Assembly: GCA_963662315.1 (NCBI GenBank)
Contig: OY759353.1
Coordinates: 3,840,001-3,904,000 of the forward strand
Direction of reading: 5' to 3'
From: Geopsychrobacteraceae bacterium
GTDB taxonomy: Bacteria; Desulfobacterota; Desulfuromonadia; Desulfuromonadales; Geopsychrobacteraceae
DNA length: 64,000 nt
Below the pieces are notes generated by a model, which saw only the letters and a list, made by a program, of their open reading frames with translations, made no database searches and was not told the DNA's origin. Shown here piece after piece: positions 11,188 to 25,784 of the stretch. The position numbers and the translations under genes were made by a program. The number at the start of each line of letters is the position of its first letter. Within the stretch, counting starts at the first letter, position 1.

Positions 11188-11268
11188 TTGAATTCGATCA
11201 AAACTGTAGCCCTAGCGGATGGCACCAAAGTGCCCGCCCTTGGTCAGGAAACCTGGTATGTGGGGGGA
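11188..11268 (+). pseudogene. N-terminal remnant of an aldo/keto reductase
   Basis: KTVALADGTKVPALGQETWYVG resembles an AKR N-terminus (vPalGqGTW); CAGGAG RBS upstream; similarity is lost after about 27 codons. Confidence 0.55.
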
Positions 11269-11786
11269 TGGCCGGCAGCAATTTATCCAGGTTCCTCTGG
11301 ATATTGTCTGGGTGTTGAAATATCTGTGCCTTCGTTTGCTGAGGGCATTGATATTACTGATATGCCCTATTTCATCCTGAAGCAGGCCGGTCATTTCCAA
11401 ACAAAAACTGCGCCCCTGATTTTCTGAGTTTGTCTTCCGTGACAACGAATCTAGCGCAGCACTCACTGACAATATGCTTGTTCAGCACAACACGCATAAC
11501 TATAATGGCACAGAACTTTCCGTGTTTGGTCCTTCAACCTTAAAACGGGATTCTGACAAAAGAGAGGGGTTTTTCCATTTATACCTCCAAATATCGGCAT
11601 AGCTGGAAAAATATCGATTTCAAAGAAACTGGAAATTATTTTCCATGTTTGAGTAAGAATATATTACTAGGTGGAAAATTCTCCAGTCTATAGACGCCTA
11701 TATATGGACTATTTTCCATCTATCAATACTGTTGGTAGTACCAATTAAAATAACGAAATTTTCATTTCTATTAAGGACAATTACTA

Positions 11787-12776
11787 GTGGGTAGTGAAGC
11801 AAAAATATCTGTCTTCTTCTCATGGCAATCTGATTCTTCTAACAAAACAAACCTTAGCTTGATTGAAGATTGTCTAAAGAAGGCAGTAAAAGAAATTTCT
11901 AAAGAAGAATCAATAATTGTCATCGTTGACAGAGACACAAAGGGGGTCGGTGGAACACCTAGTATAGTTGATGCGATTTTGAAAAAAATAAGAAGTTGCG
12001 ATGTATTTGTATGGGACGCAACGATAATTAACGATATGCCAAGACACACACCAAACCCTAATGTTCTTCTTGAACTTGGATATGCACTTGCAATTGTTGG
12101 GGAAGGGAGAATCATTGGGGTCATGAATGAAGCAAAAGGAAATGGCCCGGAAAAGCTACCATTCGATCTAGTGCATAGGCGTTGGCCAATTCGGTACCAA
12201 CTAGATGATTCTGACCCCAAGTTTGAAGAAAATAAAAAAAACACGAAAAATTTTCTTACAAGTACATTTGCAAGGGCACTCAGAGAAGCCATCAAAGAAC
12301 CCAAAATAGGAGCAGTCCATAGTGACATAGATTTTCTTACTGCGAAGGTTCTTTGGGGGTGCATTAATTCTACATGGGTGCAGAACTGGCTCATGTTTAG
12401 AAAAAACAACATTCAATACGATAAACGTGAATATCGTGACAAACTTGAAGATTATTGCGACATCGCCTCAAAGCCGGAAAATAGCTTTTCTGAAAATACC
12501 CTTGGGGAGTTGCACGGAAATTTGATCAATGCCATTCAGGGGTATCTATGGGCCGCTGCAGTTGAAATGGTTCCCTGTTTTGGCAATGAAGATGCCTACG
12601 TTATCAACGCCAAAGATCAAGCTCGGCAACATGGATGGATTGAGAATTATGACGAAATGTACGATCGACAAGTAGGAGAGCTGAGAAAAGGAATTAATGC
12701 AGTAGAAAATGCGTGGGATCTTTATGTGCAGAGTCTCCGGGTTAAATACCCAGAAATTACCCACGACTTAATGTGA
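11787..12776 (+). CDS. TIR/nucleoside-deoxyribosyltransferase-like domain protein, possible defence gene
   Basis: Motifs VFFSWQSD, DRDT.G..G.P.I, CDVFVWD, PNPNVLLELGYA and LPFDL; AT-rich relative to the flanks. Confidence 0.6.
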   Translation: MGSEAKISVFFSWQSDSSNKTNLSLIEDCLKKAVKEISKEESIIVIVDRDTKGVGGTPSIVDAILKKIRSCDVFVWDATIINDMPRHTPNPNVLLELGYALAIVGEGRIIGVMNEAKGNGPEKLPFDLVHRRWPIRYQLDDSDPKFEENKKNTKNFLTSTFARALREAIKEPKIGAVHSDIDFLTAKVLWGCINSTWVQNWLMFRKNNIQYDKREYRDKLEDYCDIASKPENSFSENTLGELHGNLINAIQGYLWAAAVEMVPCFGNEDAYVINAKDQARQHGWIENYDEMYDRQVGELRKGINAVENAWDLYVQSLRVKYPEITHDLM

Positions 12777-13030: not shown

Positions 13031-13774
13031 GGAGTTCCGGGGACAGTATATAGATCTTTGACAAAGTCTTGTTTCCTGATAGTCTTTTTCTTATGGCAAG
13101 AATAGCACGAGTTATTGCACCGGGCTTGCCCCATCATGTAACGCAACGGGGCAACCGGCGGCAGACGACATTTTTTTGCGATGAGGATTTTCAGATTTAT
13201 ATCGATCTGATGGCTCATTGGTGTGCCAAGTATCATGTGGATATCTGGGCTTGGTGCCTCATGCCAAACCATGTTCATTTAATTGCGGTGCCAACAGATG
13301 AAGCCGGCCTGGCGCGTGCGATTGGTGAAGCGCATAGACGCTATACCCGACATATCAATTTCCGCCATGATTGGCGGGGTCATCTGTGGCAAGAACGTTT
13401 TGCTTCTTTCCCTATGGACGAAGCCTATCTGCTTGCCGCTGCGCGTTATATAGAAATGAACCCTGTCGCTGCAAACCTGGTCTCTGACCTTGGGCAGTAC
13501 CCCTGGAGTAGTGCGAAAGCGCACCTCAACGACCTGGATGATGGTCTGGTGAACCGCGCTCCACTATTGGATCTGGTTTCAGACTGGCAAAGTTTCCTGA
13601 AGTTAAGTAACGAAGAAGAACTGGAGATTTTGCATAAACATGAGAAAACAGGGCGACCACTTGGGAATTTGTCATTTGTTGAAAGTATCGAAGTTCTATT
13701 AGCACGGACATTGCGGCCTCTGCCACCAGGCCCTAAAAAGAATGATTAGTTCTATATACTGTCCCCGGAACTCC
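13031..13774 (+). mobile_element. RAYT-like element copy 1, bounded by 24-bp terminal inverted repeats
   Basis: GGAGTTCCGGGGACAGTATATAGA at 13031-13054 and its reverse complement at 13751-13774; extra 16-bp end copy at 13013-13028. Confidence 0.85.
13093..13749 (+). CDS. Y1 HUH transposase (RAYT/TnpA-Y1 family), copy 1
   Basis: MARIARV..PGLPHHVTQRGNRRQ, HUH motif MPNHVHL, GHLWQERF, catalytic Tyr in RYIEMNPV, YPWSS. Confidence 0.92.
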   Translation: MARIARVIAPGLPHHVTQRGNRRQTTFFCDEDFQIYIDLMAHWCAKYHVDIWAWCLMPNHVHLIAVPTDEAGLARAIGEAHRRYTRHINFRHDWRGHLWQERFASFPMDEAYLLAAARYIEMNPVAANLVSDLGQYPWSSAKAHLNDLDDGLVNRAPLLDLVSDWQSFLKLSNEEELEILHKHEKTGRPLGNLSFVESIEVLLARTLRPLPPGPKKND

Positions 13775-14090: not shown

Positions 14091-14426
14091 TCAAACCTCT
14101 ACGAACTTATTCCCGCTATCAAAATGTTTAACCAATTCCTGTATTAGAAATTCGTAAACCGAATTTGATGCACTATCCGATGGCAAAAAATAGATTTTAG
14201 ATAAGTAATACCTTTTTCCTAAAGCATCATTAACCAGCTTCAAACCTGAAAGAACTTGGTCCAAAACCTGTGCAGAAGAAGTCCTCGCCTTCAAATCATT
14301 TTTAACATCCCATTCTACGACTTCTACAGCGGTTTCTTGTTCAGAAAAACTAACACCTAGAATGTTATCCTGAGAACCCGTCATCCGAGCAACTTTATAA
14401 ACGTTTCCATCTTTTACAAATTGCAT
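14091..14426 (-). CDS. Putative immunity protein 1
   Basis: 111 aa, translationally coupled (TAATG) to the upstream toxin; AT-rich. Confidence 0.7.
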   Translation of the reverse strand: MQFVKDGNVYKVARMTGSQDNILGVSFSEQETAVEVVEWDVKNDLKARTSSAQVLDQVLSGLKLVNDALGKRYYLSKIYFLPSDSASNSVYEFLIQELVKHFDSGNKFVEV

Positions 14427-15475
14427 TATTCAACCCCCCAAGGAAAACCTCTCCAACGCCAATCAACTCTGTCATGAGCTTTGCTATAACCAGAATCATA
14501 TTTCAACTCATACCACCTTTCGGCAATTTCATGTTTCATCCATGTGATATCGGCGTCAGTATGTGTTCCGCTTTCTAAGCGCTTCCAAGCCTGAGCCTGC
14601 TCTATCGTACTATCAAATCTTCCTACCGTTGCCGGGATACCCTGATCCACATAACGATCCAGTAAATGCTCGTTATAGAAAACGTGATCTTTTACTTTTT
14701 GAATATTTCCAGGTTTGAAGCCTGTACTTGATGCAATTGCAGAAACATCTGAATCACTTGCCCTTATTGCATCATATAGATCATCTGCTGATGCCGTATA
14801 TCCTCCACCACCAGTTTGTTTTAGTGGTGAAGTGTTGTTTGCAATATAGCGACGTATCAGCGCTTGTTGTTCGCCACGCTCCAAACTGGAAATATCTGCT
14901 GGAATCATAATTGAATCAGCCTGATAACGCGAATACCAATTTGCAGCTGCCGCTTTTACTTGTTTATTCGTTTCCTCACCGGATTTCTTATCCGGCTTGG
15001 CCTGTTTTATTTCCTGTTTCTCAGTAGCTTTCAGACCCTGATTGTCCACAGTTTTGACAACATTCCTTGATAAAGATCTCTGCTGGCTGTGGGTTTGCGG
15101 GGCCATGATTTTACTATAAGCAGATGAGACTATTCCCTGCAGGTTTTCATATTGGTTTATTCCTGACAGGCTGGCGACCCAGCGGCCTTTTTGGGGATTG
15201 TTCGGGTAGTCAGGGTCCTGCTGCCAGTAGACGACCCCCAAGAAGGGGAGCTTCATAGAGTAGACGAGGCAGACTTCCATCTTGTCAATTTTTTTTAGCA
15301 GCTCATCAAGCCCCTGTTGATAATTGCGCCACTGGGCAGGAACGAATTCGTTTAGATTATGAATGCTGGTAAAACCGTCACAATAGGCGTCACGGACATC
15401 GTTTTTAGCGAAAAACGGATTGGAAATATACGGCAGGTCAGCAACCGTAATATCTCTGGCAGCAACAAGTCTCAT
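14426..15475 (-). CDS. Polymorphic toxin 1: shared N-terminal domain plus HExxE..AH C-terminal domain
   Basis: First ~130 aa are near-identical to 17662..18798 and 23642..24781; unique tip YDAIR..DV..IA..TG..KDHVF...RFD...AWKRL..G...HEIAE...YSKAH. Confidence 0.75.
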   Translation of the reverse strand: MRLVAARDITVADLPYISNPFFAKNDVRDAYCDGFTSIHNLNEFVPAQWRNYQQGLDELLKKIDKMEVCLVYSMKLPFLGVVYWQQDPDYPNNPQKGRWVASLSGINQYENLQGIVSSAYSKIMAPQTHSQQRSLSRNVVKTVDNQGLKATEKQEIKQAKPDKKSGEETNKQVKAAAANWYSRYQADSIMIPADISSLERGEQQALIRRYIANNTSPLKQTGGGGYTASADDLYDAIRASDSDVSAIASSTGFKPGNIQKVKDHVFYNEHLLDRYVDQGIPATVGRFDSTIEQAQAWKRLESGTHTDADITWMKHEIAERWYELKYDSGYSKAHDRVDWRWRGFPWGVE

Positions 15476-15546
15476 CGGTATCCCCCCTCAAGGATAAAAT
15501 AAGTTGCTATAAGAAATAACTATCTGGAAAGTTTTAATGAGAGGAG

Positions 15547-15574
15547 AGGATAGCGTTTTTTTAGCTTGAGTCAA
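15547..15574 (-). promoter_or_regulatory. Probable sigma70 promoter of the toxin genes (also present upstream of toxins 2 and 3)
   Basis: Minus strand TTGACT-N16-TATCCT; RBS GAGGGGGG before the ATG. Confidence 0.5.
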
Positions 15575-15659
15575 GATGTTTAGCAGGAATTTTAAGGGCG
15601 GTCTTTTCAACTCGGGATCAATTTTCAGAAGTTATCTTAGATAAAATCACATCAAAACC

Positions 15660-15962
15660 GCCGGGTCCCGGCCCGGCAGCCGGATTCATTTTTTCCAGCG
15701 ATGAAAAAACGAATCAAAAAAATCTTTTAAGGTCAAACACACTGACGATAGTCGATTCGGTCTACACTTTATCGTTGCTACCAGCAGTGAACAGCCCGCC
15801 CAACGATGCTATTGCATCCATGGGCAGAACCGAATTAAAGTGAATACATAAAAATGCCAACGGCATTTTTGCGGTTCTGGCCATCAGGCGCGTATTGCGC
15901 TTACTATTTGTCGCCCGCTTGGGACAAATAGTAAGGCGTTGTGCGGGGCGCAACACCGCGAC
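15660..15962. repeat. Structured non-coding repeat, copy 1 (internally deleted)
   Basis: Matches 18983-19368 and 24966-25352 but lacks the segment between TATTGCGC and TTACTATTTG. Confidence 0.85.
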
Positions 15963-15987
15963 CGTGCTTGTTTCATTTCAATCATAG

Positions 15988-16731
15988 GGAGTTCCGGGGA
16001 CAGTATATAGATCTTTGACAAAGACTTGTTGCCTGATAGTCTTTTTCTTATGGCGAGAATAGCACGAGTTATTGCACCGGGCTTGCCCCATCATGTAACG
16101 CAACGAGGCAACCGGCGGCAGACGACATTTTTTTGCGATGAGGATTTTCAGATTTATATCGATCTGATGGCTCATTGGTGTGCCAAGTATCATGTGGATA
16201 TCTGGGCTTGGTGCCTCATGCCAAACCATGTTCATTTAATTGCGGTGCCAACAGATGAAGCCGGCCTGGCGCGTGCGATTGGTGAAGCGCATAGACGCTA
16301 TACCCGACATATCAATTTCCGCCATGATTGGCGGGGTCATCTGTGGCAAGAACGTTTTGCTTCTTTCCCTATGGACGAAGCCTATCTGCTTGCCGCTGCG
16401 CGTTATATAGAAATGAACCCTGTCGCTGCAAACCTGGTCTCTGACCCTGGGCAGTACCCCTGGAGTAGTGCGAAAGCGCACCTCAACGACCTGGATGATG
16501 GTCTGGTGAACCGCGCTCCACTATTGGATCTGGTTTCAGACTGGCAAAGTTTCCTAAAGTTAATTAACGAAGAAGAACTGGAGATTCTGCATAAACATGA
16601 GAAAACAGGGCGACCACTTGGGAATTTGTCATTTGTTGAAAGTATCGAAGTTCTATTAGCACGGACATTGCGGCCTCTGCCACCAAGCCCTAAAAAGAAT
16701 GATTAGTTCTATATACTGTCCCCGGAACTCC
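15988..16731 (+). mobile_element. RAYT-like element copy 2 with 24-bp terminal inverted repeats
   Basis: Inverted repeats at 15988-16011 and 16708-16731. Confidence 0.85.
16050..16706 (+). CDS. Y1 HUH transposase (RAYT-like), copy 2
   Basis: Near-identical to 13093..13749, with a few substitutions. Confidence 0.92.
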   Translation: MARIARVIAPGLPHHVTQRGNRRQTTFFCDEDFQIYIDLMAHWCAKYHVDIWAWCLMPNHVHLIAVPTDEAGLARAIGEAHRRYTRHINFRHDWRGHLWQERFASFPMDEAYLLAAARYIEMNPVAANLVSDPGQYPWSSAKAHLNDLDDGLVNRAPLLDLVSDWQSFLKLINEEELEILHKHEKTGRPLGNLSFVESIEVLLARTLRPLPPSPKKND

Positions 16732-17101
16732 CGGTCAGATAGAGCGGTCGTCGAAAGGCAACGATCTCCATCGCCGCTTTGCAGCGCGGGCAGCGGAACA
16801 CCGGTCGTGATCGCACGGGAATCGGTTCGAGCATGACGCGCAGAACGTACTGTACCAAACGCAGAGTTCTTTTGGCGTTACCGTGCAGAAAACCATAATC
16901 CCGCACCCGGCGAAACCCTTTTGGGAGAACATGCTGGAGGACCAGCCAGAGAAAGTCTTCCCCCTTCAGGGTGAGGGTCTGCTCTTGCTGGGTCTCGCTG
17001 TCGCGATAGCGGAAAGTCACCTTTCCTTTTTGGCAGGAGATGATGTTGTTCTCGGCAATCACACCGCGATAGAGGTAGCGCGACAGATATTTCAGGGCCG
17101 T
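16732..17101 (-). pseudogene. C-terminal fragment of an IS91-family (Y2) transposase
   Basis: ALKYLSRYLYRGVIAE..VTFRYRD..FLWLVLQHVLPKGFRRVRDYGFL..CPRC; RAYT end motifs on both sides. Confidence 0.8.
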
Positions 17102-17116
17102 GGAGTTCCGGGGACA
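17102..17116 (+). repeat. Solo RAYT end motif
   Basis: GGAGTTCCGGGGACA with no transposase attached. Confidence 0.9.
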
Positions 17117-17244
17117 TCCATTTCTTTATTAGTAATCCCTTTTTCCTGCTTGAGGGCCATCAAGGATTCAAACTCTGCGCTTGCCAATGACCTTAGCTGA
17201 TCTGCTTGCTGAGAGTTAACGAGTAGCCTACTGTTTGGAACAAC
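17117..17244 (-). pseudogene. Truncated orphan toxin tip (same tip as 23012-23223, shorter)
   Basis: VVPNSRLLVNSQQADQLRSLASAEFESLMALKQEKGITNKEM begins right after the immunity 2 stop codon and is cut by a RAYT end. Confidence 0.7.
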
Positions 17245-17652
17245 CTACAATTCGATAATCACCTCAGAGTTAAATGATTCAGGCATTTGAAGAAATCTTC
17301 TCCATGCAGTAACTACGGCCTTAAATTCAGCAAGTGAAAATCTTCCTTCTGGCTGCCCAACCCATTCATCATTTACATTTATATCAACTTGAATACCATT
17401 TTGGGAAATTAAGACATCCACGTCATTTCCTTCTATATCAGACTCACTTTCGTGCCCTTCCTCTATCATTTCAACTTCAGCCAATACTCGATCACAATCA
17501 TCAATAGACTGAGCAATGCAACTTAAAATATTGGCGAGATATCGCTGATATCTCGCCACATCCTGACCATCTATAAACTCCTGGCACTGATGATAAACTT
17601 GTCCCAACACAGGATGGTTTCCACCATCAGCATAATAAAGCTTTAACTTCAC
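17245..17652 (-). CDS. Putative immunity protein 2 (cognate to the EndoU toxin)
   Basis: Acidic 135-aa protein starting 9 bp downstream of the toxin stop codon. Confidence 0.72.
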   Translation of the reverse strand: MKLKLYYADGGNHPVLGQVYHQCQEFIDGQDVARYQRYLANILSCIAQSIDDCDRVLAEVEMIEEGHESESDIEGNDVDVLISQNGIQVDINVNDEWVGQPEGRFSLAEFKAVVTAWRRFLQMPESFNSEVIIEL

Positions 17653-17661
17653 ATTGCACCT

Positions 17662-18798
17662 CTAAGGTTTCTTTGGCGTTTGATATACCGGATAAACAGT
17701 TGTTTTTGGTGAAATCCAACCCTCGACTTTGACACCGGAAGGCGTAACTGAAATCCACTTATCACCTTGAACAATCTTATTCGGGTCATTCCAAGCTGCA
17801 TCAACTTCTGTTTTAACACGGATTTCATCCCAACCTTTGGGAAACATCGTATTAGTAGAATTATTGCTAGTCTTAGTTATCCACTGTCCCGGATTCGCCG
17901 GATCGGGAACTTGAATCGTAGCTTTATATACATCTGCAACATCAGGCACCGATTCAGTTCTGGGGACAATTCGGACATCACCGTAGAGCAAAGTATGACC
18001 GCCAGTCGGTTTACCTTTTTTCGTGTAGTCAGCTTTCAATACGTGATCAAAATCTACTGGTGATTGCTGAACGTACTTGTTTGGAACAACTATCTCACCA
18101 GCAGATGATACTACAGGCCCCATCGAAAGTCCAAGCCCAGCTCTCAAACCACCAGCGGTCAACGCTGTGCCAACAACGTCATTTGTCTCAGCAGGCGTCT
18201 GAGAAAGTCGCATGCTGTAGGTACTTGCAAAGTCAGTTTGCTTAAATGCAGTAGCCTCTTGCAATACTTGATCGCCTCTTTCGGTCTCCTCAGGCCTTGC
18301 CATCACCTGCTTCTGGCCCAAAAAATTGCGTCTGCCGCCTTTGACACTGTTCTCAAACCCTTGGTTGACCACCGCTTTGGCTGTGCTGCTTTGCAAAGAT
18401 CTCTGCTGGCTGTGGGTTTGCGGTACCATGATTTTACTGTAAGCAGATGAGACTATTCCCTGCAGGTTTTCATATTGGTTTATTCCTGACAGGCTGGCAA
18501 CCCAGCGGCCTTTTTGGGGATTGTTCGGGTAGTCAGGGGCCTGCTGCCAGTAGACGACCCCCAAGAAGGGGAGCTTCATAGAGTAGACGAGGCAGACTTC
18601 CATCTTGTCAATTTTTTTTAGCAGCTCATCAAGCCCCTGTTGATAATGGCGCCACTGGACAGGAACGAATTCGTTTAGATTATGAATGCTGGTAAAACCG
18701 TCACAATAGGCGTCACGGACATCGTTTTTAGCGAAAAACGGATTGGAAATATACGGCAGGTCAGTAACCGTAATATCTCTGGCAGCAACAAGTCTCAT
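17662..18798 (-). CDS. Polymorphic toxin 2: shared N-terminal domain plus bacterial EndoU nuclease tip
   Basis: After VVPN: DFDHVL..TGGH...K...TMFPKGW...SGVKVEG...TVYP, an EndoU-type H/H/K pattern. Confidence 0.82.
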   Translation of the reverse strand: MRLVAARDITVTDLPYISNPFFAKNDVRDAYCDGFTSIHNLNEFVPVQWRHYQQGLDELLKKIDKMEVCLVYSMKLPFLGVVYWQQAPDYPNNPQKGRWVASLSGINQYENLQGIVSSAYSKIMVPQTHSQQRSLQSSTAKAVVNQGFENSVKGGRRNFLGQKQVMARPEETERGDQVLQEATAFKQTDFASTYSMRLSQTPAETNDVVGTALTAGGLRAGLGLSMGPVVSSAGEIVVPNKYVQQSPVDFDHVLKADYTKKGKPTGGHTLLYGDVRIVPRTESVPDVADVYKATIQVPDPANPGQWITKTSNNSTNTMFPKGWDEIRVKTEVDAAWNDPNKIVQGDKWISVTPSGVKVEGWISPKTTVYPVYQTPKKP

Positions 18799-18982
18799 CG
18801 GTATCCCCCCTCAAGGATAAAATAAGTTGCTATAAGAAATAACTATCTGGAAAGTTTTAATGAGGGGAGAGGATAGCGTTTTTTTAGATTCAGTCAAGAT
18901 ATTTAGCAGGAGTTTTAAGGGCGGTCTTTTCGACTCGGGATCAATTTTCAGAAGTTATCTTAGATAAAATTACATCAAAACC

Positions 18983-19556
18983 GCCGGGTCCCGGCCCGGC
19001 AGCCGGATTCATTTTTTCCAGCGATAAAAAAACGAATCAAAAAAATCTTTTAAGGTCAAACACACTGACGATAATTGATTCGGTCAACGTCTAATCGTTG
19101 CTACCCGTAGTGAACAGACCGCCCAACGATGCTGCGCATCCATGGGCAGAACCGAATTAAAGTGAGTACATAAAAATGCCAACGGCATTTTTGCGGTTCT
19201 GGCCATCAGGCGCGTATTGCGCCGTCGGCCGGCTGGTTAGATGCTGGATGTTCCTTTGGAGAGACGAAGCCCGAGTACGGACCCTTTAAAGAAGGGCGTT
19301 TTGTGCTTACTATTTGTCGCCCGCCTGGGACAAATAGTAAGGCGTCGTGCGGGGCGCAACACCGCGACCTTGCTTGTTTCATTTCAATCATAAAAGACAA
19401 CACCACCGGGTCCCGGCCCGGCAGCCGGATTCATTTTTTCCAGCGATGAAAAAACGAATCAAAAAAAATCTTTAGGTCAAACACACTGACGACAATTGAT
19501 TTTCGGTCTACGCTTATTCGTTGTTACGAGCAGAGAACAGAACGTCTGACGATGCT
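18983..19556. repeat. Structured non-coding repeat, copy 2 (18983-19368) plus partial second unit (19406-19556)
   Basis: CCGGGTCCCGGCCCGGCAGCCGGATTCATTTTTTCCAGCGAT..AAAAAACGAATC recurs after about 420 bp. Confidence 0.85.
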
Positions 19557-21551
19557 GTCGTATCAATAGACAGTGGAAGCTCATGGTCCTAATCCATAAA
19601 TTAACCAAGACTCACCGTTTTGGAGTTGTTGTGGGAGTTCCGGGGACAGTATATAGATCTTTGACAAAGACTTGTTGCCTGCTAGTCTTTTTCTTATGGC
19701 GAGAATAGCACGAGTTATTGCACCGGGCTTGCCCCATCATGTAACGCAACGGGGCAACCGGCGGCAGACGACATTTTTTTGCGATGAGGATTTTCAGATT
19801 TATATCGATCTGATGGCTCATTGGTGTGCCAAGTATCATGTGGATATCTGGGCTTGGTGCCTCATGCCAAACCATGTTCATTTAATTGCGGTGCCAACAG
19901 ATGAAGCCGGCCTGGCGCGTGCGATTGGTGAAGCGCATAGACGCTATACCCGACATATCAATTTCCGCCATGATTGGCGGGGTCATCTGTGGCAAGAACG
20001 TTTTGCTTCTTTCCCTATGGATGAAGCCCATCTCCTTGCCGCTGCGCGTTATATAGAAATGAACCCTGTCGCTGCAAACCTGGTCTCTGACCCTGGGCAG
20101 TACCCCTGGAGTAGTGCGAAAGCGCACCTCAATGACCTGGATGATGGTCTGGAGAACCGCGCTCCACTATTGGATCTGGTTTCAGACTGGCAAAGTTTCC
20201 TAAAGTTAAGTAACGAAGAAGAACTGGAGATTTTGCATAAACATGAGAAAACAGGGCGACCACTTGGGAATTTGTCTTTTGTTGAAAGTATCGAAGTTCT
20301 ATTAGCACGGACATTGCGGAGGGTGTAAAATCCTTTGTGTAAATAGACCCAGTCGGTTACAACCCGTAACCACTGGAGGAACCACAGATGTCTATACCTG
20401 ACGACCTGCTTGATAGCCTGATGAAGGACTACAAAAACCCTGAAGATCTCATTGGGGAAACCGGGCTGCTGAAACAACTGACAAAAAAACTTTTGGAGCG
20501 GGCGATGCAAACCGAGATGACCGATCACCTCGGCTATGAAAAAAACGCTCCGACTACTAATAAATCCGGCAATACTCGTAACGGAAGTTACCAGAAAAAG
20601 ATCAAGGGTGAGTTTGGAGAACTTGATATTTCTGTTCCCCGAGACCGGGATGCCAGCTTTGAACCAGCTATCCTCCCCAAAGGGCAAAGCCGATTTTCTG
20701 GCTTTGATGATAAAATCATCGCTTTGTATGCTCGCGGCATGACCACCCGCGACATCCAGGCACACTTGGAAGAAATCTATGGGGTTGAGATTTCACCGAC
20801 GCTGGTTTCTCAGGTAACCAAGGCTGTTCAGGAGGAGGTTGTTCTGTGGCAGAATCGCCCCCTTGATGATGTTTGGCCAATCGTCTACCTTGATGCTCTT
20901 CGCGTCAAGGTTCGGCAGGATAACCGAGTCATAAATAAAGCTGTCTATCTTGCTGTTGGTGTCAATCTTGACGGCGTGAAAGAGGTTCTAGGCATGTGGA
21001 CTGCCGAGAATGAAGGAGCCAAATTCTGGCTGCAGGTCGTCACCGAATTGAAGAACCGTGGGGTCAAGGATATCTTCATTGCCTGCGTCGACGGACTGAA
21101 GGGATTTCCTGAAGCGATAGAGGCCGTCTTCCCGAAAACGCAGGTTCAGCTCTGCATCGTCCATATGGTTCGGCACAGCCTGAACTACGTCTCTTGGAAA
21201 CAACGCAAGGAAGTCGCTGCCGACTTAAAAACAATCTATTCAGCGGCGACACTGGAGGAGGCTGAGTACCACCTGGAACTCTTCGGAGATAAATGGGATT
21301 CCAGCCATCCTACAATCAGCAAATCATGGCGAAACAACTGGGAGCGGATTACTCCGCTGTTCTCTTATCCGCCAGAGATCCGAAAGGCAATTTACACGAC
21401 CAACGCCATTGAGTCGGTAAATATGTCGTTGAGGAAGGTAATGAAGAACCGAGGTTCGTTCCCCAATGACGAGGCCATGTTTAAGCTGATGTATCTGGCT
21501 TTACAGAATATTGCCAAGAAATGGACAATGCCGATCCGTAACTGGCGATCG

Positions 21552-22849
21552 GGTAGTGTTCAAAATTCTGTGTCAATTCGTTACTATCATCACAACCAAA
21601 GGAATGACACATGACTCAACCCAAAATCACCTTCGATCTAGACGCTGCTCTTGCGGCCTTGCGTGAAGGCAAGGATCTCAACGGCAAAGACGGGATTCTC
21701 ACTCCGCTGATCAAGCAGCTTACAGAAGCCGCCATACAGGCCGAACTTGATGAGCACTTGGCCAATGAGGAAGGCCCGAATCGCAAAAACGGTAAAACGT
21801 CAAAAACAATCAAGTCCCTCTCGGACAGTTTTATTCTTGATACTCCGCGTGATCGCGCCAATACCTTTGAGCCCCAGCTGGTTAAAAAAAATCAGACTCA
21901 GCTTACCGATGAGTTGGAGCGGAAAATCATTGCCCTGTTTGCTCTTGGTACGAGCTATCAGGATATTCGGCAACATGTCTCCGACATGTATGGAATTTCC
22001 GTTTCCAACGGCACAATTAACGCCGTAACCGACAAGCTCTTGCCGGACCTGCAAGCCTGGCGAGAGCGCGATCTTGAAGCGATTTATCCGATCCTCTGGC
22101 TGGACGCTATCCACTACAAGGTCAAGGAAAACGGCCGTTATATCGGTAAGGCGATCTACACCATCCTGGGCCTGAACATCGAAGGCAAGAAAGAGCTTCT
22201 CGGACTCTATCTCTCCGACAATGAAGGGGCACACCACTGGTTAAGCGTTCTTACCGATCTGCATAACCGCGGGGTACAGGACATTTTGATCGCATGTGTC
22301 GATGGCCTCAAGGGTTTCCCCGAAGCTATCGAAAGCATCTATCCGAATACTGAAATCCAGCACTGCGTCATCCACCAGATTCGCAATTCGATCAAGTATG
22401 TAGCCTCAAAGAATCAAAAGGCCTTCATGGCTGATCTGAAGTGTGTCTACAAGGCAGCGACCCTCAACGCAGCGGAGCTGGCTTTGGACGACTTGGAATC
22501 GAAATGGGGTGAGAAGTATCCCATGGTCATTAAGTCTTGGCGCAGTAAATGGCCGACCTTATCCAACTATTTCAAGTACCCCGATTACGTCCGGACAGCC
22601 ATCTATACCACCAATGCTGTGGAGGCGGTTCACCGACAGTTCCGCAAACTGACCAAGACAAAGGGTGGCTTCGCCAATGAAAACAGCTTGCTGAAGCTGC
22701 TTTACGCTGGCATACTCAAGGCCTCCGAGCGTTGGACACATCCGATTCAGAACTGGAATCTGACGCTGGCTCAGCTGACCATCCATTTTCCGGGTCGGCT
22801 GGAAAAACATCTCAGTCTATGAGCCTGACACAGAATCCTGAACACCCTC
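21552..22849 (+). mobile_element. IS256-family element (inner, a different element)
   Basis: Ends GGTAGTGTTCAAAATTCTGTGTCA and TGACACAGAATCCTGAACACCCTC; 8-bp target duplication GGCGATCG at 21544-21551 and 22850-22857. Confidence 0.93.
21611..22822 (+). CDS. IS256-family transposase (intact)
   Basis: Motifs TPRDR, WLDAIHYKV, CVDGLKGFPEAI, QHCVIHQIRNS and YTTNAVE. Confidence 0.95.
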   Translation: MTQPKITFDLDAALAALREGKDLNGKDGILTPLIKQLTEAAIQAELDEHLANEEGPNRKNGKTSKTIKSLSDSFILDTPRDRANTFEPQLVKKNQTQLTDELERKIIALFALGTSYQDIRQHVSDMYGISVSNGTINAVTDKLLPDLQAWRERDLEAIYPILWLDAIHYKVKENGRYIGKAIYTILGLNIEGKKELLGLYLSDNEGAHHWLSVLTDLHNRGVQDILIACVDGLKGFPEAIESIYPNTEIQHCVIHQIRNSIKYVASKNQKAFMADLKCVYKAATLNAAELALDDLESKWGEKYPMVIKSWRSKWPTLSNYFKYPDYVRTAIYTTNAVEAVHRQFRKLTKTKGGFANENSLLKLLYAGILKASERWTHPIQNWNLTLAQLTIHFPGRLEKHLSL

Positions 22850-23011
22850 GGCGATCGGCACTGAATCAGTTTTCGATTATATTTGAAGGGCGGATGCCAC
22901 TGCTCTAACCGACGGGGCATTTACACAATCTGCTTTACACCCTCACATTGCGGCCTCTGCCACCAGGCCCTAAAAAGAATGATTAGTTCTATATACTGTC
23001 CCCGGAACTCC

Positions 23012-23223
23012 TCCGGCATAAAACCTTGTTGATTGTTGCGGTGAATCTGCGAGATTTTTCCTGTTTTCAGATCCATTGCAACGGAAAGTGCAGGCCCCAT
23101 TTCTTTATTAGTAATCCCTTTTGCCTGCTTGAGGGCCATCAAGGATTCAAACTCTGCGCTTGCCAATGACCTTAGCTGATCTGCTTGCTGAGAGTTAACG
23201 AGTAGCCTACTGTTTGGAACAAT
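23012..23223 (-). pseudogene. Truncated orphan toxin tip (possibly a YwqJ-like deaminase start)
   Basis: IVPNSRLL...KEMGPALSVAMDLKTGKISQIHRNNQQGFMP follows the immunity 3 stop codon and is cut by a RAYT end. Confidence 0.6.
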
Positions 23224-23642
23224 CAATTATTTACATTCAAACACGATGGAATTTTTCCGTTTGTCTTTAAAAAGCTTAAACATATTTCGCGAACAGTCTC
23301 TATATCATCAATTAAGCTCCGATCATTCTGAAATTGTCCCAATATAGCGATATTTTTAGCATCTTTATCTGGGTTATATAATCGGTAAATTAATCGATCT
23401 CCTTCAGAGTCAACTTCGCTACATTCCACATAACATTTCCCTGCATCACAACTTACGTTAAGACTGCATTCGCCAGGCTCATCTTCCTCTCCTTTCCAAA
23501 GGGATAGAAAGCCATTATTTGAGTACACCGAATCTAACCGTGCAAAAACTTCTCTTTCAGTTGGATTTTTCAGCATTGTACTTTGGTTCCGTTCTCCAGA
23601 GGGTGAATAAACAAACCCTCCTATGCTCAGTTGTTCGATCAT
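23223..23642 (-). CDS. Putative immunity protein 3 (cognate to the deaminase toxin)
   Basis: 139 aa, TAATG-coupled to the toxin; NPT..EV...L and DDIETVREIC..F pattern is reminiscent of Imm1-like proteins. Confidence 0.72.
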   Translation of the reverse strand: MIEQLSIGGFVYSPSGERNQSTMLKNPTEREVFARLDSVYSNNGFLSLWKGEEDEPGECSLNVSCDAGKCYVECSEVDSEGDRLIYRLYNPDKDAKNIAILGQFQNDRSLIDDIETVREICLSFLKTNGKIPSCLNVNN

Positions 23643-24781
23643 TATTCAGCCTTTGACTTAATAATTTTAAACTTGCTCATACCTGGCTCCCAATAATAAG
23701 TTTTCGGGAGGCCCGTTTTATTACTTAAAGAACGAACAGTTAAACTAGTGTATTCGTCTTTAATTGCAGCTTGCACAAGATCTTTTTGGCAAAAACCACA
23801 AACATCAAGACCATCTACATCCATTACAACATTTGAACCTTTCCCAACACCGGAATTTCGAATTTGCTGAGCCACTCCGATTTCAGCATGAGCATTTGCC
23901 ATATTGCTATTTGGATACCCACCTTCTCGTAGAGGTTTAGCCTCAACGAATTCTGAAATAAACGTTTTCTGATTCGCATCCGCTCCCAATCTAAGAGTTG
24001 GATTGATATCTTCAAATAGTTGATCGCCTACTTTTGCTCGAGCTCTAACAGATAATTCAGTGTTTGGAACCACTCTTCCACCAGCAGATGATACTACAGT
24101 CCCCTTCGAAAGTCCAAGCCCAGTTCTCAAACCACCAGCGGTCAACGCTGTGCCAACAACGTCATTTGTCTCAGCAGGCGTCTGAGAAAGTCGCATGCTG
24201 TAGGTACTTGCAAAGTCAGTTTGCTTAAAAGCAGTAGCCTCTTGCAATACGTGATCGCCTCTTTCGGCCTCCTCAGGCCTTGCCATCACCTGCTTCTGGC
24301 CCAAAAAATTGCGTCTGCCGCCTTCGACACTGTTCTCAAACCCTTGGTTGACCACCGCTTTGGCTGTGCTGCTTTGCAAAGAGGCCTGCTGGCTGTGGGT
24401 TTGCGGTACCATGATTTTACTGTAAGCAGATGAGACTATTCCCTGCAGGTTTGCATATTGGTTTATTCCTGATAGGCTGGCGACCCAGCGGCCTTTTTGA
24501 GAATTGTTCGGGTAGTCAGGGTCCTGCTGCCAGTAGACGACCCCCAAGAAGGGGAGCTTCATAGAGTAGACGAGGCAGACTTCCATCTTGTCAATTTTTT
24601 TTAGCAGCTCATCAAGCCCCTGTTGATAATTGCGCCACTGGGCAGGAACGAATTCGTTTAGATTATGAATGCTGGTAAAACCGTCACAATAGGCGTCACG
24701 GACATCGTTTTTAGCGAAAAACGGATTGGAAATATACGGCAGGTCAGCAACCGTAATATCTCTGGCAGCAACAAGTCTCAT
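23642..24781 (-). CDS. Polymorphic toxin 3: shared N-terminal domain plus cytidine-deaminase-like tip
   Basis: After VVPN: zinc-deaminase motifs AHAEIG and DVCGFC. Confidence 0.82.
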   Translation of the reverse strand: MRLVAARDITVADLPYISNPFFAKNDVRDAYCDGFTSIHNLNEFVPAQWRNYQQGLDELLKKIDKMEVCLVYSMKLPFLGVVYWQQDPDYPNNSQKGRWVASLSGINQYANLQGIVSSAYSKIMVPQTHSQQASLQSSTAKAVVNQGFENSVEGGRRNFLGQKQVMARPEEAERGDHVLQEATAFKQTDFASTYSMRLSQTPAETNDVVGTALTAGGLRTGLGLSKGTVVSSAGGRVVPNTELSVRARAKVGDQLFEDINPTLRLGADANQKTFISEFVEAKPLREGGYPNSNMANAHAEIGVAQQIRNSGVGKGSNVVMDVDGLDVCGFCQKDLVQAAIKDEYTSLTVRSLSNKTGLPKTYYWEPGMSKFKIIKSKAE

Positions 24782-24965
24782 CGGTATCCCCCCTCAAGGA
24801 TAAAATAAGTTGCTATAAGAAATAACTATCTGGAAAGTTTTAATGAGAGGAGAGGATAGCGTTTTTTTAGCTTGAGTCAAGATGTTTAGCAGGAATTTTA
24901 AGGGCGGTCTTTTCAACTCGGGATCAATTTTCAGAAGTTATCTTAGATAAAATCACATCAAAATC

Positions 24966-25539
24966 GCCGGGTCCCGGCCCGGCAGCCGGATTCATTTTTT
25001 CCAGCGATAAAAAAACGAATCAAAAAAATCTTTTAAGGTCAAACACACTGACGATAGTCGATTCGGTCTACACTTTATCGTTGCTACCAGCAGTGAACAG
25101 CCCGCCCAACGATGCTATTGCATCCATGGGCAGAACCGAATTAAAGTGAATACATAAAAATGCCAACGGCATTTTTGCGGTTCTGGCCATCAGGCGCGTA
25201 TTGCGCCGTCGGCCGGCTGGTTAGATGCTGGAGGTTTCTTTGGAGAGATGAAGCCCGAGTACGGACCCTTTAAAAAAGGGCGTTTTGTGCTTACTATTTG
25301 TCGCCCGCCTGGGACAAATAGTAAGGCGTTGTGCGGGGCGCAACACCGTGACCGTGCTTGTTTCATTTCAATCATAAAAGACAACACCACCGGGTCCCGG
25401 CCCGGCAGCCGGATTCATTTTTTTCCAGCGCTGAAAAAACGAATCAAAAAAATCTTTAAGGTCAAACACACTGACGATAATTGATTCGGTTTACGTTCTA
25501 TCGTTGCTATCAGCAGTGAACAGACCGCCCAACGATGCT
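24966..25539. repeat. Structured non-coding repeat, copy 3 (24966-25352) plus partial second unit (25390-25539)
   Basis: Same multi-hairpin sequence as 18983-19556. Confidence 0.85.
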
Positions 25540-25784
25540 GTCGTATCAATAGACAGTGGAAGCTCATGGCCCTACTCCATAAATTAACCAAGATTCACCG
25601 TTTTGGAGTTGTTGGGTAAATAATATCTCAAAAGAGTCAGAGATTGGTCAGAAATCACCTATATAATGGATTAATTGGCAATATGAGAAGCCTGATCGAA
25701 GACTTTCATTCGGTGGGCATTAAAATTTTTAATATTATATGTGAGGTGTAGAGATTCATGGGATTCAGGTTTTTCTACAGACTC

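Follow-up and report, generated by a model that had tools for sequence, protein, structure and literature searches.

Here, we report a family of eight putative polymorphic toxin genes in the genome of a Geopsychrobacteraceae bacterium (GenBank assembly GCA_963662315.1; one contig, OY759353.1, of 4,709,195 bp), three of which lie in the stretch analyzed here (64,000 nt, genome positions 3,840,001 to 3,904,000; hereafter, the window). Their common N-terminal domain of ~132 residues (the N-domain) is probably, and with good confidence from profile comparison, a distant homologue of PIX, an N-terminal domain of Pantoea agglomerans effectors, and falls outside PIX as operationally defined. With moderate confidence, we explain the family as orphan type VI secretion system (T6SS) cargo effectors that carry a divergent PIX-like VgrG-loading domain.

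The window contains three toxin cassettes, all on the reverse strand (window coordinates):

14426 to 15475, reverse strand: toxin 1, 349 aa, with the PIX-like N-domain at residues 1 to 132 (nt 15080 to 15475), a type I linker, and a tip without an assigned family.
14091 to 14426, reverse strand: candidate immunity gene 1, 111 aa, with an ATGA overlap with the toxin 1 stop codon and no Pfam family.
17662 to 18798, reverse strand: toxin 2, 378 aa, with the PIX-like N-domain (nt 18403 to 18798), a type II linker to about residue 241, and an EndoU_bacteria tip (residues 249 to 371).
17245 to 17652, reverse strand: candidate immunity gene 2, 135 aa, after a 9-nt gap from the toxin 2 stop codon, with a weak UPF0231 match below the cut-off.
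23642 to 24781, reverse strand: toxin 3, 379 aa, with the PIX-like N-domain (nt 24386 to 24781), a type II linker, and a Deam_C deaminase tip (residues 242 to 372).
23223 to 23642, reverse strand: candidate immunity gene 3, 139 aa, DUF6911, with an ATGA overlap with the toxin 3 stop codon.

A sequence-only reading of the window had described three genes of 349 to 379 aa with near-identical N-termini and unrelated tips, each followed by a small, tightly linked gene and preceded by the same promoter and ribosome-binding site (RBS), and all of this held. Residues 1 to 132 are identical except at ~7 positions, the tips beyond the linker could not be aligned, the small genes follow at −1 to +9 nt, and the DNA 5′ of the three toxins is 94 to 99.5% identical over 425 to 839 nt, with a promoter-like TTGACT-16-TATCCT ~70 nt before the toxin start and a strong RBS (GAGGGGGG) 7 nt before the ATG. 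M1 is the true toxin start because an in-frame TGA lies 5 codons upstream; this stop codon and the strong RBS rule out a false start inside a longer gene. Window proteins were searched against Pfam-A (hmmscan, E ≤ 0.1), where the tips of toxins 2 and 3 scored 47.7 bits (EndoU_bacteria) and 124.7 bits (Deam_C), respectively, and the tip of toxin 1 had no match in Pfam or by sequence in the Protein Data Bank (PDB). The ESM Atlas, used as a lead only, placed the toxin 1 tip near clusters of hypothetical proteins, in one of which 37% of members carry Pyocin_S. That reading had also seen no signal peptide and no Rhs, PAAR, VENN, LXG, MafB, or MuF hallmarks; residues 1 to 135 of the three toxins gave zero Pfam-A matches (Rhs, PAAR, LXG, and MafB included), and direct reading of the toxin sequences found no signal peptide, nor any RTX-type C-terminus; NCBIfam likewise gave zero matches on the N-domain.

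The three-gene family counted from the window alone is real there, and the genome count is eight. Copies of the N-domain (tblastn, 94 to 100% identical) occur at four places, one at 0.349 Mb, three in the window, one at 3.992 Mb, and three at 4.206 to 4.213 Mb. All are complete genes (338 to 397 aa) with eight different tips, and a small open reading frame (ORF) follows each, at −1 to +13 nt in seven and at +29 nt in one. Four of the eight tips were above the Pfam cut-off (EndoU, Deam_C, Colicin-DNase/WHH, and the CdiA-CT-type RNase A family RNAse_A_bac); the other four comprised one RNAse_A_bac match below the cut-off and three tips without any family (toxin 1 and two outside the window). The linker had been called low complexity, which describes it only in part: after residue 132, its sequences sort into conserved types whose breaks fall near residues 132, 165, and 241 (five genes alike up to a ...VVP[ND] junction at about residue 241, two alike to about residue 165, and one variant). 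Upstream sequence common to all eight copies extends over at least 143 nt, usually 250 to 430 nt. The family thus has the constant head, tips of known families, and adjacent small genes by which polymorphic toxin-immunity systems are generally recognized, the small genes being candidates for the immunity role. Conserved promoter, head, and linker sequences could act together as a recombination platform.

This layout resembles that of Rhs, CdiA, and MafB systems in its constant head, exchangeable tip-immunity modules, clustered cassettes, and recombination-prone conserved junctions. In contrast to those systems, the toxins carry no Rhs repeats, FHA, VENN, PAAR, or MafB N-domain (Pfam), and whereas the orphan arrays of Rhs, CdiA, and MafB are promoterless fragments, the cassettes here are complete genes with their own promoter and start.

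The N-domain is very rare. A word-indexed search of 5.8 billion proteins returned eight family proteins among 114 candidates, seven from the source genome and the eighth (P0008) metagenomic, with a head 65% identical and a CHAP plus PG_binding (peptidoglycan-binding) tip. Across 1.84 billion cluster representatives, a full HMMER scan yielded 19 matches at E ≤ 1e-3, of which 5 were from the source genome and 14 were remote (E, 1e-6 to 6e-4), with Rhodocyclales metagenome-assembled genomes (MAGs) and one Sedimenticolaceae MAG as named sources. In all 14 remote relatives, the match starts at residues 1 to 6 and the C-termini vary (WHH/Colicin-DNase, PT-TG, and others). A family profile (A3, 18 sequences) matched 0 of 40 related genomes (6 congeneric species included), 0 of 400 in the phylum sample, and, at E ≤ 1e-3, 2 of 400 genomes drawn from the GTDB order to which the enterobacteria belong; 29 further genomes of the order sample had matches at E 0.01 to 1, which were taken as noise. 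One of these two order-sample matches, of 383 aa, shares its tip with the Sedimenticolaceae relative; the other, of 731 aa, precedes three paralogous ORFs of 347 aa in tandem that have no Pfam family (genome G1043, L069:539-5905) and are possibly an immunity-gene array. Against 72,556 plasmids, tblastn of the N-domain gave chance matches only (E ≥ 6). The Sedimenticolaceae relative adjoins a weak NarE-like ADP-ribosyltransferase ORF and a weak Imm49-like ORF (L021:5650-6150 and 11212-12009), and the same locus holds a type I restriction system with an inserted HepT/nucleotidyltransferase pair.

The name PIX stands for an N-terminal domain of 140 residues found in Pse3 (348 aa) and Pse4 (which ends in a Colicin_D tip) of P. 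agglomerans (Carobbi et al., bioRxiv 10.1101/2023.07.16.549128). According to that preprint, the homologous stretch of PIX proteins continues after the domain to residue 213/215 and is dispensable for secretion, the 140 residues are secreted on their own and bind VgrG, PIX genes are always orphans with a downstream gene within 25 bp in about 95%, and Pse3 and Pse4 are 72% identical; the census gives 224 unique proteins in 1571 genomes, and the authors' definition is RPS-BLAST E ≤ 1e-9 with coverage ≥70%. We sought a PIX-like comparison family via Colicin_D in a sample of Enterobacteriaceae, with Escherichia coli ThrB as a yardstick to reach it, and 18 of 401 genomes matched. Colicin_D-ended ORFs of ~330 to 370 aa bore two alternative N-termini on one common linker. 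One of these N-termini recruited 44 proteins, including six 348-aa proteins from P. agglomerans and 329-aa Colicin_D forms (Serratia, Klebsiella, Pluralibacter, and Yokenella), with further PIX-like members in Cronobacter and Lonsdalea. The 348-aa Pantoea protein and three Colicin_D forms were 70 to 75% identical over residues 1 to 213/215, in agreement with the 72% given for Pse3 and Pse4, and 17 to 19% identical beyond. We infer that this Enterobacterales family is PIX, since it fits the published description by five descriptors, though not by accession.

The second enterobacterial head (type B; ~150 aa, MFRLLRAWDAERELSPADFQYILSPRDA...) shares its linker and Colicin_D tips with the PIX-like head (L047:709-1782, L049:712-1782, and L063:694-1788, in Enterobacteriaceae genomes G1046 and G1360). 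By hhalign, it aligned with neither the PIX-like nor the source family (E 0.22 and 0.048), and it may be another, possibly undescribed, delivery domain.

Aligned with 42 PIX-like N-termini (hhalign), A3 scored 35.7 (E 2.6e-5; probability, 75%; 113 columns; query residues 2 to 127). The alignment is co-linear, starting at residue 2 of the source domain and residue 6 of the enterobacterial domain, and lies well above 100 column shuffles (mean, 12.0; standard deviation, 2.5; maximum, 20.9; best E, 0.009) and the reversed alignment (12.7). A second profile comparison, with the full-length alignment, gave E 1.1e-4 (probability, 56%; 110 columns), and adding two bridging proteins, which were found by the source-family profile and not by the PIX profile, gave E 7.6e-7 (probability, 91.8%; 75 columns; maximum of a second 100 shuffles, 18.8; best E, 0.022). 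Common to both families is the motif D-[LFI]-P-x-I-x-x-P-x-x-A, followed later by G-x-V-x-L-[LV]; the aligned cores read D-L-P-Y-I-S-N-P-F-F-A here versus D-F-P-N-I-I-H-P-N-M-A, and later G/M-x-V-x-L-V versus G-K-V-V-L-L.

The two families are also built alike. Both have an N-terminal domain from residue 1 (~135 to 140 aa in PIX and ~132 aa here), a linker conserved among paralogues, polymorphic tips, a total length of ~330 to 400 aa, an immunity gene (here a candidate) within a few bases, and orphan genes in T6SS-positive genomes. Of the traits that mark PIX, the window family thus shows the extreme N-terminal position with a variable tip, the orphan site with a close downstream ORF, a T6SS cluster in the genome, and homology at the profile level. 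It differs in that its hosts lie outside the Enterobacteriaceae, in its far greater rarity (19 representatives in 1.84 billion versus 224 proteins in 1571 genomes), and in having eight copies in one source genome. The sequence-only reading had taken the N-terminus for a wholly undescribed domain defining a new toxin class, a claim that gives way to the same place, size, layout, and orphan habit in PIX and to the co-linear profile match; a match to a described delivery domain, which that reading named as its own refutation, exists only as remote homology and is absent from the PIX-type profile search described below. On the best reading, the family widens the known PIX class and does not found a new one.

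RIX is a 55-residue, arginine-rich N-terminal marker confined to Vibrionaceae and Moritellaceae and is both necessary and sufficient for secretion of polymorphic T6SS cargo effectors, according to its description (Kanarek et al., Nat Commun 2023, PMC10435454). The N-domain likewise heads polymorphic proteins with a presumed T6SS role, but it is set apart from the description of RIX, by reading, by its ~132 residues and the 4 Arg among its first 55. If it does serve the T6SS, the N-domain would resemble MIX, FIX, and WHIX in concept, as a shared module that marks diverse effectors; it matched no Pfam or NCBIfam model.

An AlphaFold model of the N-domain (18-sequence alignment) had a mean predicted local distance difference test (pLDDT) score of 77, with >80 over most of residues 1 to 100, and ran in the order strand, four helices, three strands, and helix. 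The model of the Pantoea PIX-like protein (mean pLDDT, 44) was too poor for a fold comparison. The Foldseek search that had been advised for this domain gave no usable match in the PDB (best E, 1.1), nor did VIA-align against 48,161 chains (best Z, 3.1). A guanylate-binding protein, the best PDB profile-sequence match (E 0.014), was judged to be chance. The nearest ESM Atlas clusters (scores, 0.84 to 0.87, under the 0.9 line) bear the automatic name "Hcp family", which was kept as a lead only, the predicted alpha/beta fold not being the Hcp barrel. Standing at residue 1, constant while tips and immunity genes vary, and matched by no library family or solved fold, the N-domain behaves as the carrier or delivery module that the sequence-only reading had proposed.

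As that reading had stated, the window holds no T6SS or other contractile-system gene among its 38 further ORFs. A complete T6SS cluster (TssA, B, C, E, F, J, K, L, M, Hcp, ClpV, TagF, FHA, and VgrG) lies elsewhere in the genome, at ~22 to 43 kb; TssG was not recognized by Pfam. The genome encodes five VgrGs, one of which (688 aa) lies inside the cluster beside a DUF2169 gene. The other four share a 710-aa core that is 97% identical (L016:15501-17864, L018:5231-8848, L020:7002-10592, and L019:2946-9536), after which one has a 77-residue tail, two have ~490-residue extensions, and one has an Rhs cage; the two extensions remain conserved up to about residue 1030, with differences only over the final ~170 residues. 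Three of these four VgrGs are alike to about residue 1030. Because a common core carries differing C-terminal ends, the VgrG spikes are themselves polymorphic, with swapped ends. TssC was present in all 4 family-bearing genomes checked, against 7 of 40 relatives and 53 of 141 genomes of the order sample, in keeping with the co-occurrence that the sequence-only reading had advised tabulating. With this cluster and five VgrGs in the genome, the T6SS is the likeliest of the routes that reading had considered.

Several observations weigh against the reading as PIX-like T6SS effectors. Searched against 15,704 genome ORFs, a PIX-type hidden Markov model (HMM) built from the 42 N-termini found none of the eight toxins below E 1 and one at rank 123 (E 98); the toxins therefore fail the operational definition of PIX, with the HMM standing in for the authors' position-specific scoring matrix. 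The hhalign probabilities are moderate (56 to 92%), and both profiles are shallow (effective number of sequences, 3 to 4). The accession of Pse3, WP_064704874.1, was absent among the listed members of 18 clusters. The TssC association counts four genomes only, and four congeneric species have TssC without the toxin family, so the T6SS does not require the family. No T6SS gene adjoins any copy at the four loci annotated (the window and three relatives' loci), which is also the orphan habit of PIX. Lastly, the toxin copy at genome position 349208 sits 810 nt downstream of an orphan pair in which a sheath gene (Phage_sheath_1C) is accompanied by a gp19-type tube gene (E 2e-43; genome 346260-348398, L066:6260-8398) without baseplate genes.

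Our preferred explanation is that the eight genes encode orphan antibacterial T6SS cargo effectors. Residues 1 to ~132 would fold into a small alpha/beta domain, very distantly related to PIX, by which the effector docks onto a VgrG spike of the T6SS in this genome; the conserved linker, with its two main types and one variant, would lead to an exchangeable toxic tip, which in the window is predicted to be an EndoU RNase, a deaminase, or a domain of no assigned family. The small downstream gene would protect the producer. Near-identical promoter, N-domain, and linker sequences would provide the homology for recombination that swaps tip-immunity modules, and the Y1-transposase- and REP-rich surroundings described below may spread the cassettes.

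The alternative that survives best, although we consider it unlikely, is an independent T6SS loading domain that works like PIX, RIX, or MIX, shares no ancestry with PIX, and forms a marker-domain class of its own. It would account for the silence of Pfam and NCBIfam and the failure of the PIX-type HMM on all eight toxins, and for hosts outside the Enterobacteriaceae (Sedimenticolaceae, Rhodocyclales MAGs, and the source genome, with 0 of 40 relatives and 0 of 400 phylum genomes positive); the type B head, joined to the linker and Colicin_D tips that the PIX-like head also carries, shows that such heads are swappable. Against it stand a profile match that is co-linear from residue 2, spans 75 to 113 columns, and exceeds 200 shuffles by far, and the same size, position, and linker-plus-tip layout as PIX.

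Less probable again is that the N-domain is the ticket for another export route, whether a contractile sheath-tube device, bacteriocin-like release by lysis or in vesicles, or a type I exporter. The copy beside the orphan sheath-tube pair, the "Hcp family" clusters of the ESM Atlas (a lead only), and the ABC, HlyD, and OEP genes within the window point this way. Yet an extracellular contractile injection system would be recognized by a sheath, tube, and baseplate locus with cargo at its end, and here the pair stands beside one of eight copies; at 349208, only the last 275 nt before the toxin belong to the conserved cassette DNA, a genome scan found no other sheath of that type, no Baseplate_J match, and one lone second tube gene (1047988-1048446), and the 21-kb Sedimenticolaceae locus has no sheath or tube gene. 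The adjacency is probably incidental. The toxins lack a signal peptide and an RTX-type C-terminus, and the efflux-type genes of the window (30.3 to 41.3 kb) group HlyD and OEP with an RND/AcrB-type pump and ABC-2 permeases, an arrangement typical of efflux. We give very little weight to a broader form of this idea, in which the N-domain would be no T6SS tag but the address for an unrecognized minimal delivery route, for example around the orphan pair, and the PIX similarity would reflect an older, broader superfamily of D-phi-P-x-I-x-x-P-x-x-A docking domains that serve two or more contractile machines.

Slightly more doubtful than another export route is a role as toxin-antitoxin or abortive-infection modules inside the cell, with the N-domain as a sensor or regulator. 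Low-G+C, transposase-rich islands beside defense-like genes would suit such modules (the weak CAP12/Pycsar TIR match at 11787 to 12776; the type I restriction system and HepT/nucleotidyltransferase pair in Sedimenticolaceae), as would the tight pairing of toxin and antidote genes. The tips, however, belong to families usual in polymorphic toxins that are exported (CdiA-CT RNase A, EndoU, colicin DNase, and deaminase), the CHAP plus PG-binding tip of P0008 implies a peptidoglycan hydrolase that is sensible only outside the producer cytoplasm, and the similarity to PIX argues for export.

A role of the N-domain after delivery, in target-cell entry or tip activation, with loading done by something else, is highly improbable. 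Nothing favors it directly, and no DUF4123, DUF1795, or DUF2169 adaptor gene adjoins the cassettes. Against it, CdiA-CT toxins carry their entry domains immediately ahead of the tip and not at the protein N-terminus. The equivalent 140 residues of PIX are, in the preprint, secreted alone and bind VgrG (bioRxiv 10.1101/2023.07.16.549128).

The surroundings of the three cassettes, to which the preferred reading of T6SS cargo effectors assigns a possible part in their spread, contain the following features (window coordinates):

15476 to 15990, reverse strand: conserved upstream region of toxin 1, with TTGACT-16-TATCCT (15574 to 15547), the RBS GAGGGGGG, and REP-like palindromes.
18799 to 19640, reverse strand: conserved upstream region of toxin 2, which contains an internal duplication of 423 nt.
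24782 to 25640, reverse strand: conserved upstream region of toxin 3.
17118 to 17252, with a second copy at 23097 to 23231: downstream flank common to cassettes 2 and 3 (96% identical over 135 nt; 99% over the 126 nt aligned).
13069 to 13749, forward strand: Y1 (IS200-like, RAYT-type) transposase gene.
16026 to 16706 and 19672 to 20328, forward strand: near-identical Y1 transposase copies, interleaved with the toxin cassettes.
20388 to 22822, forward strand: Mutator-family (IS256-type) transposase genes, two in tandem, lying between cassettes 2 and 3.
16709 to 17062, reverse strand: C-terminal fragment of an IS91-type (Y2) transposase, between cassettes.

The cassettes occupy a stretch of ~14.7 kb with a G+C content of 40 to 48% (versus 50 to 58% around it), bounded by pyruvate kinase and CN-hydrolase genes, and this island is a mobile-element patchwork. 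Each of the eight toxin copies has a Y1-transposase-like match no farther than 6 kb away, out of only 16 such tblastn matches in the genome, which suggests that the cassettes travel or accumulate with Y1 elements. The flank common to cassettes 2 and 3 has no further copy anywhere in the genome. Palindromes are dense in the upstream regions (15653-15986, 18976-19474, and 24959-25458), among them a 36-nt near-perfect inverted repeat (CTTACTATTTGTCCC...GGGCGACAAATAGTAAG), and the same regions hold a G+C-rich hairpin module of 77 nt (5 copies, 423-nt spacing). These palindromes look like REP (repetitive extragenic palindromic)-type elements and may serve as terminators or insulators. At the island edge, a 329-aa protein (11787-12776, forward strand) has a weak match to a CAP12/Pycsar-effector TIR domain (E 2.5e-4, below the cut-off) and is possibly a defense gene.

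What is new here is a very divergent, rare, non-enterobacterial branch with eight cassettes in one genome and a conserved motif that may mark a docking surface. PIX has been described as an Enterobacterales delivery domain, and a word search of the literature found no description of a PIX-like domain outside that order, which is not proof of absence. With a recognizable yet very divergent PIX-like head outside it, as seen in the source genome, Sedimenticolaceae and Rhodocyclales MAGs, and two genomes in the wider GTDB order, the class would grow into a superfamily. For contact with VgrG, the short conserved motif is a candidate, and the finding would give a search handle for orphan T6SS effectors missed by current profiles. 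The eight cassettes hold at least three tips without a family assignment, each with a candidate immunity partner, and, together with four VgrGs that share a 97%-identical core and have different ends, they would make a compact natural system for studying how one spike type serves many cargo effectors.

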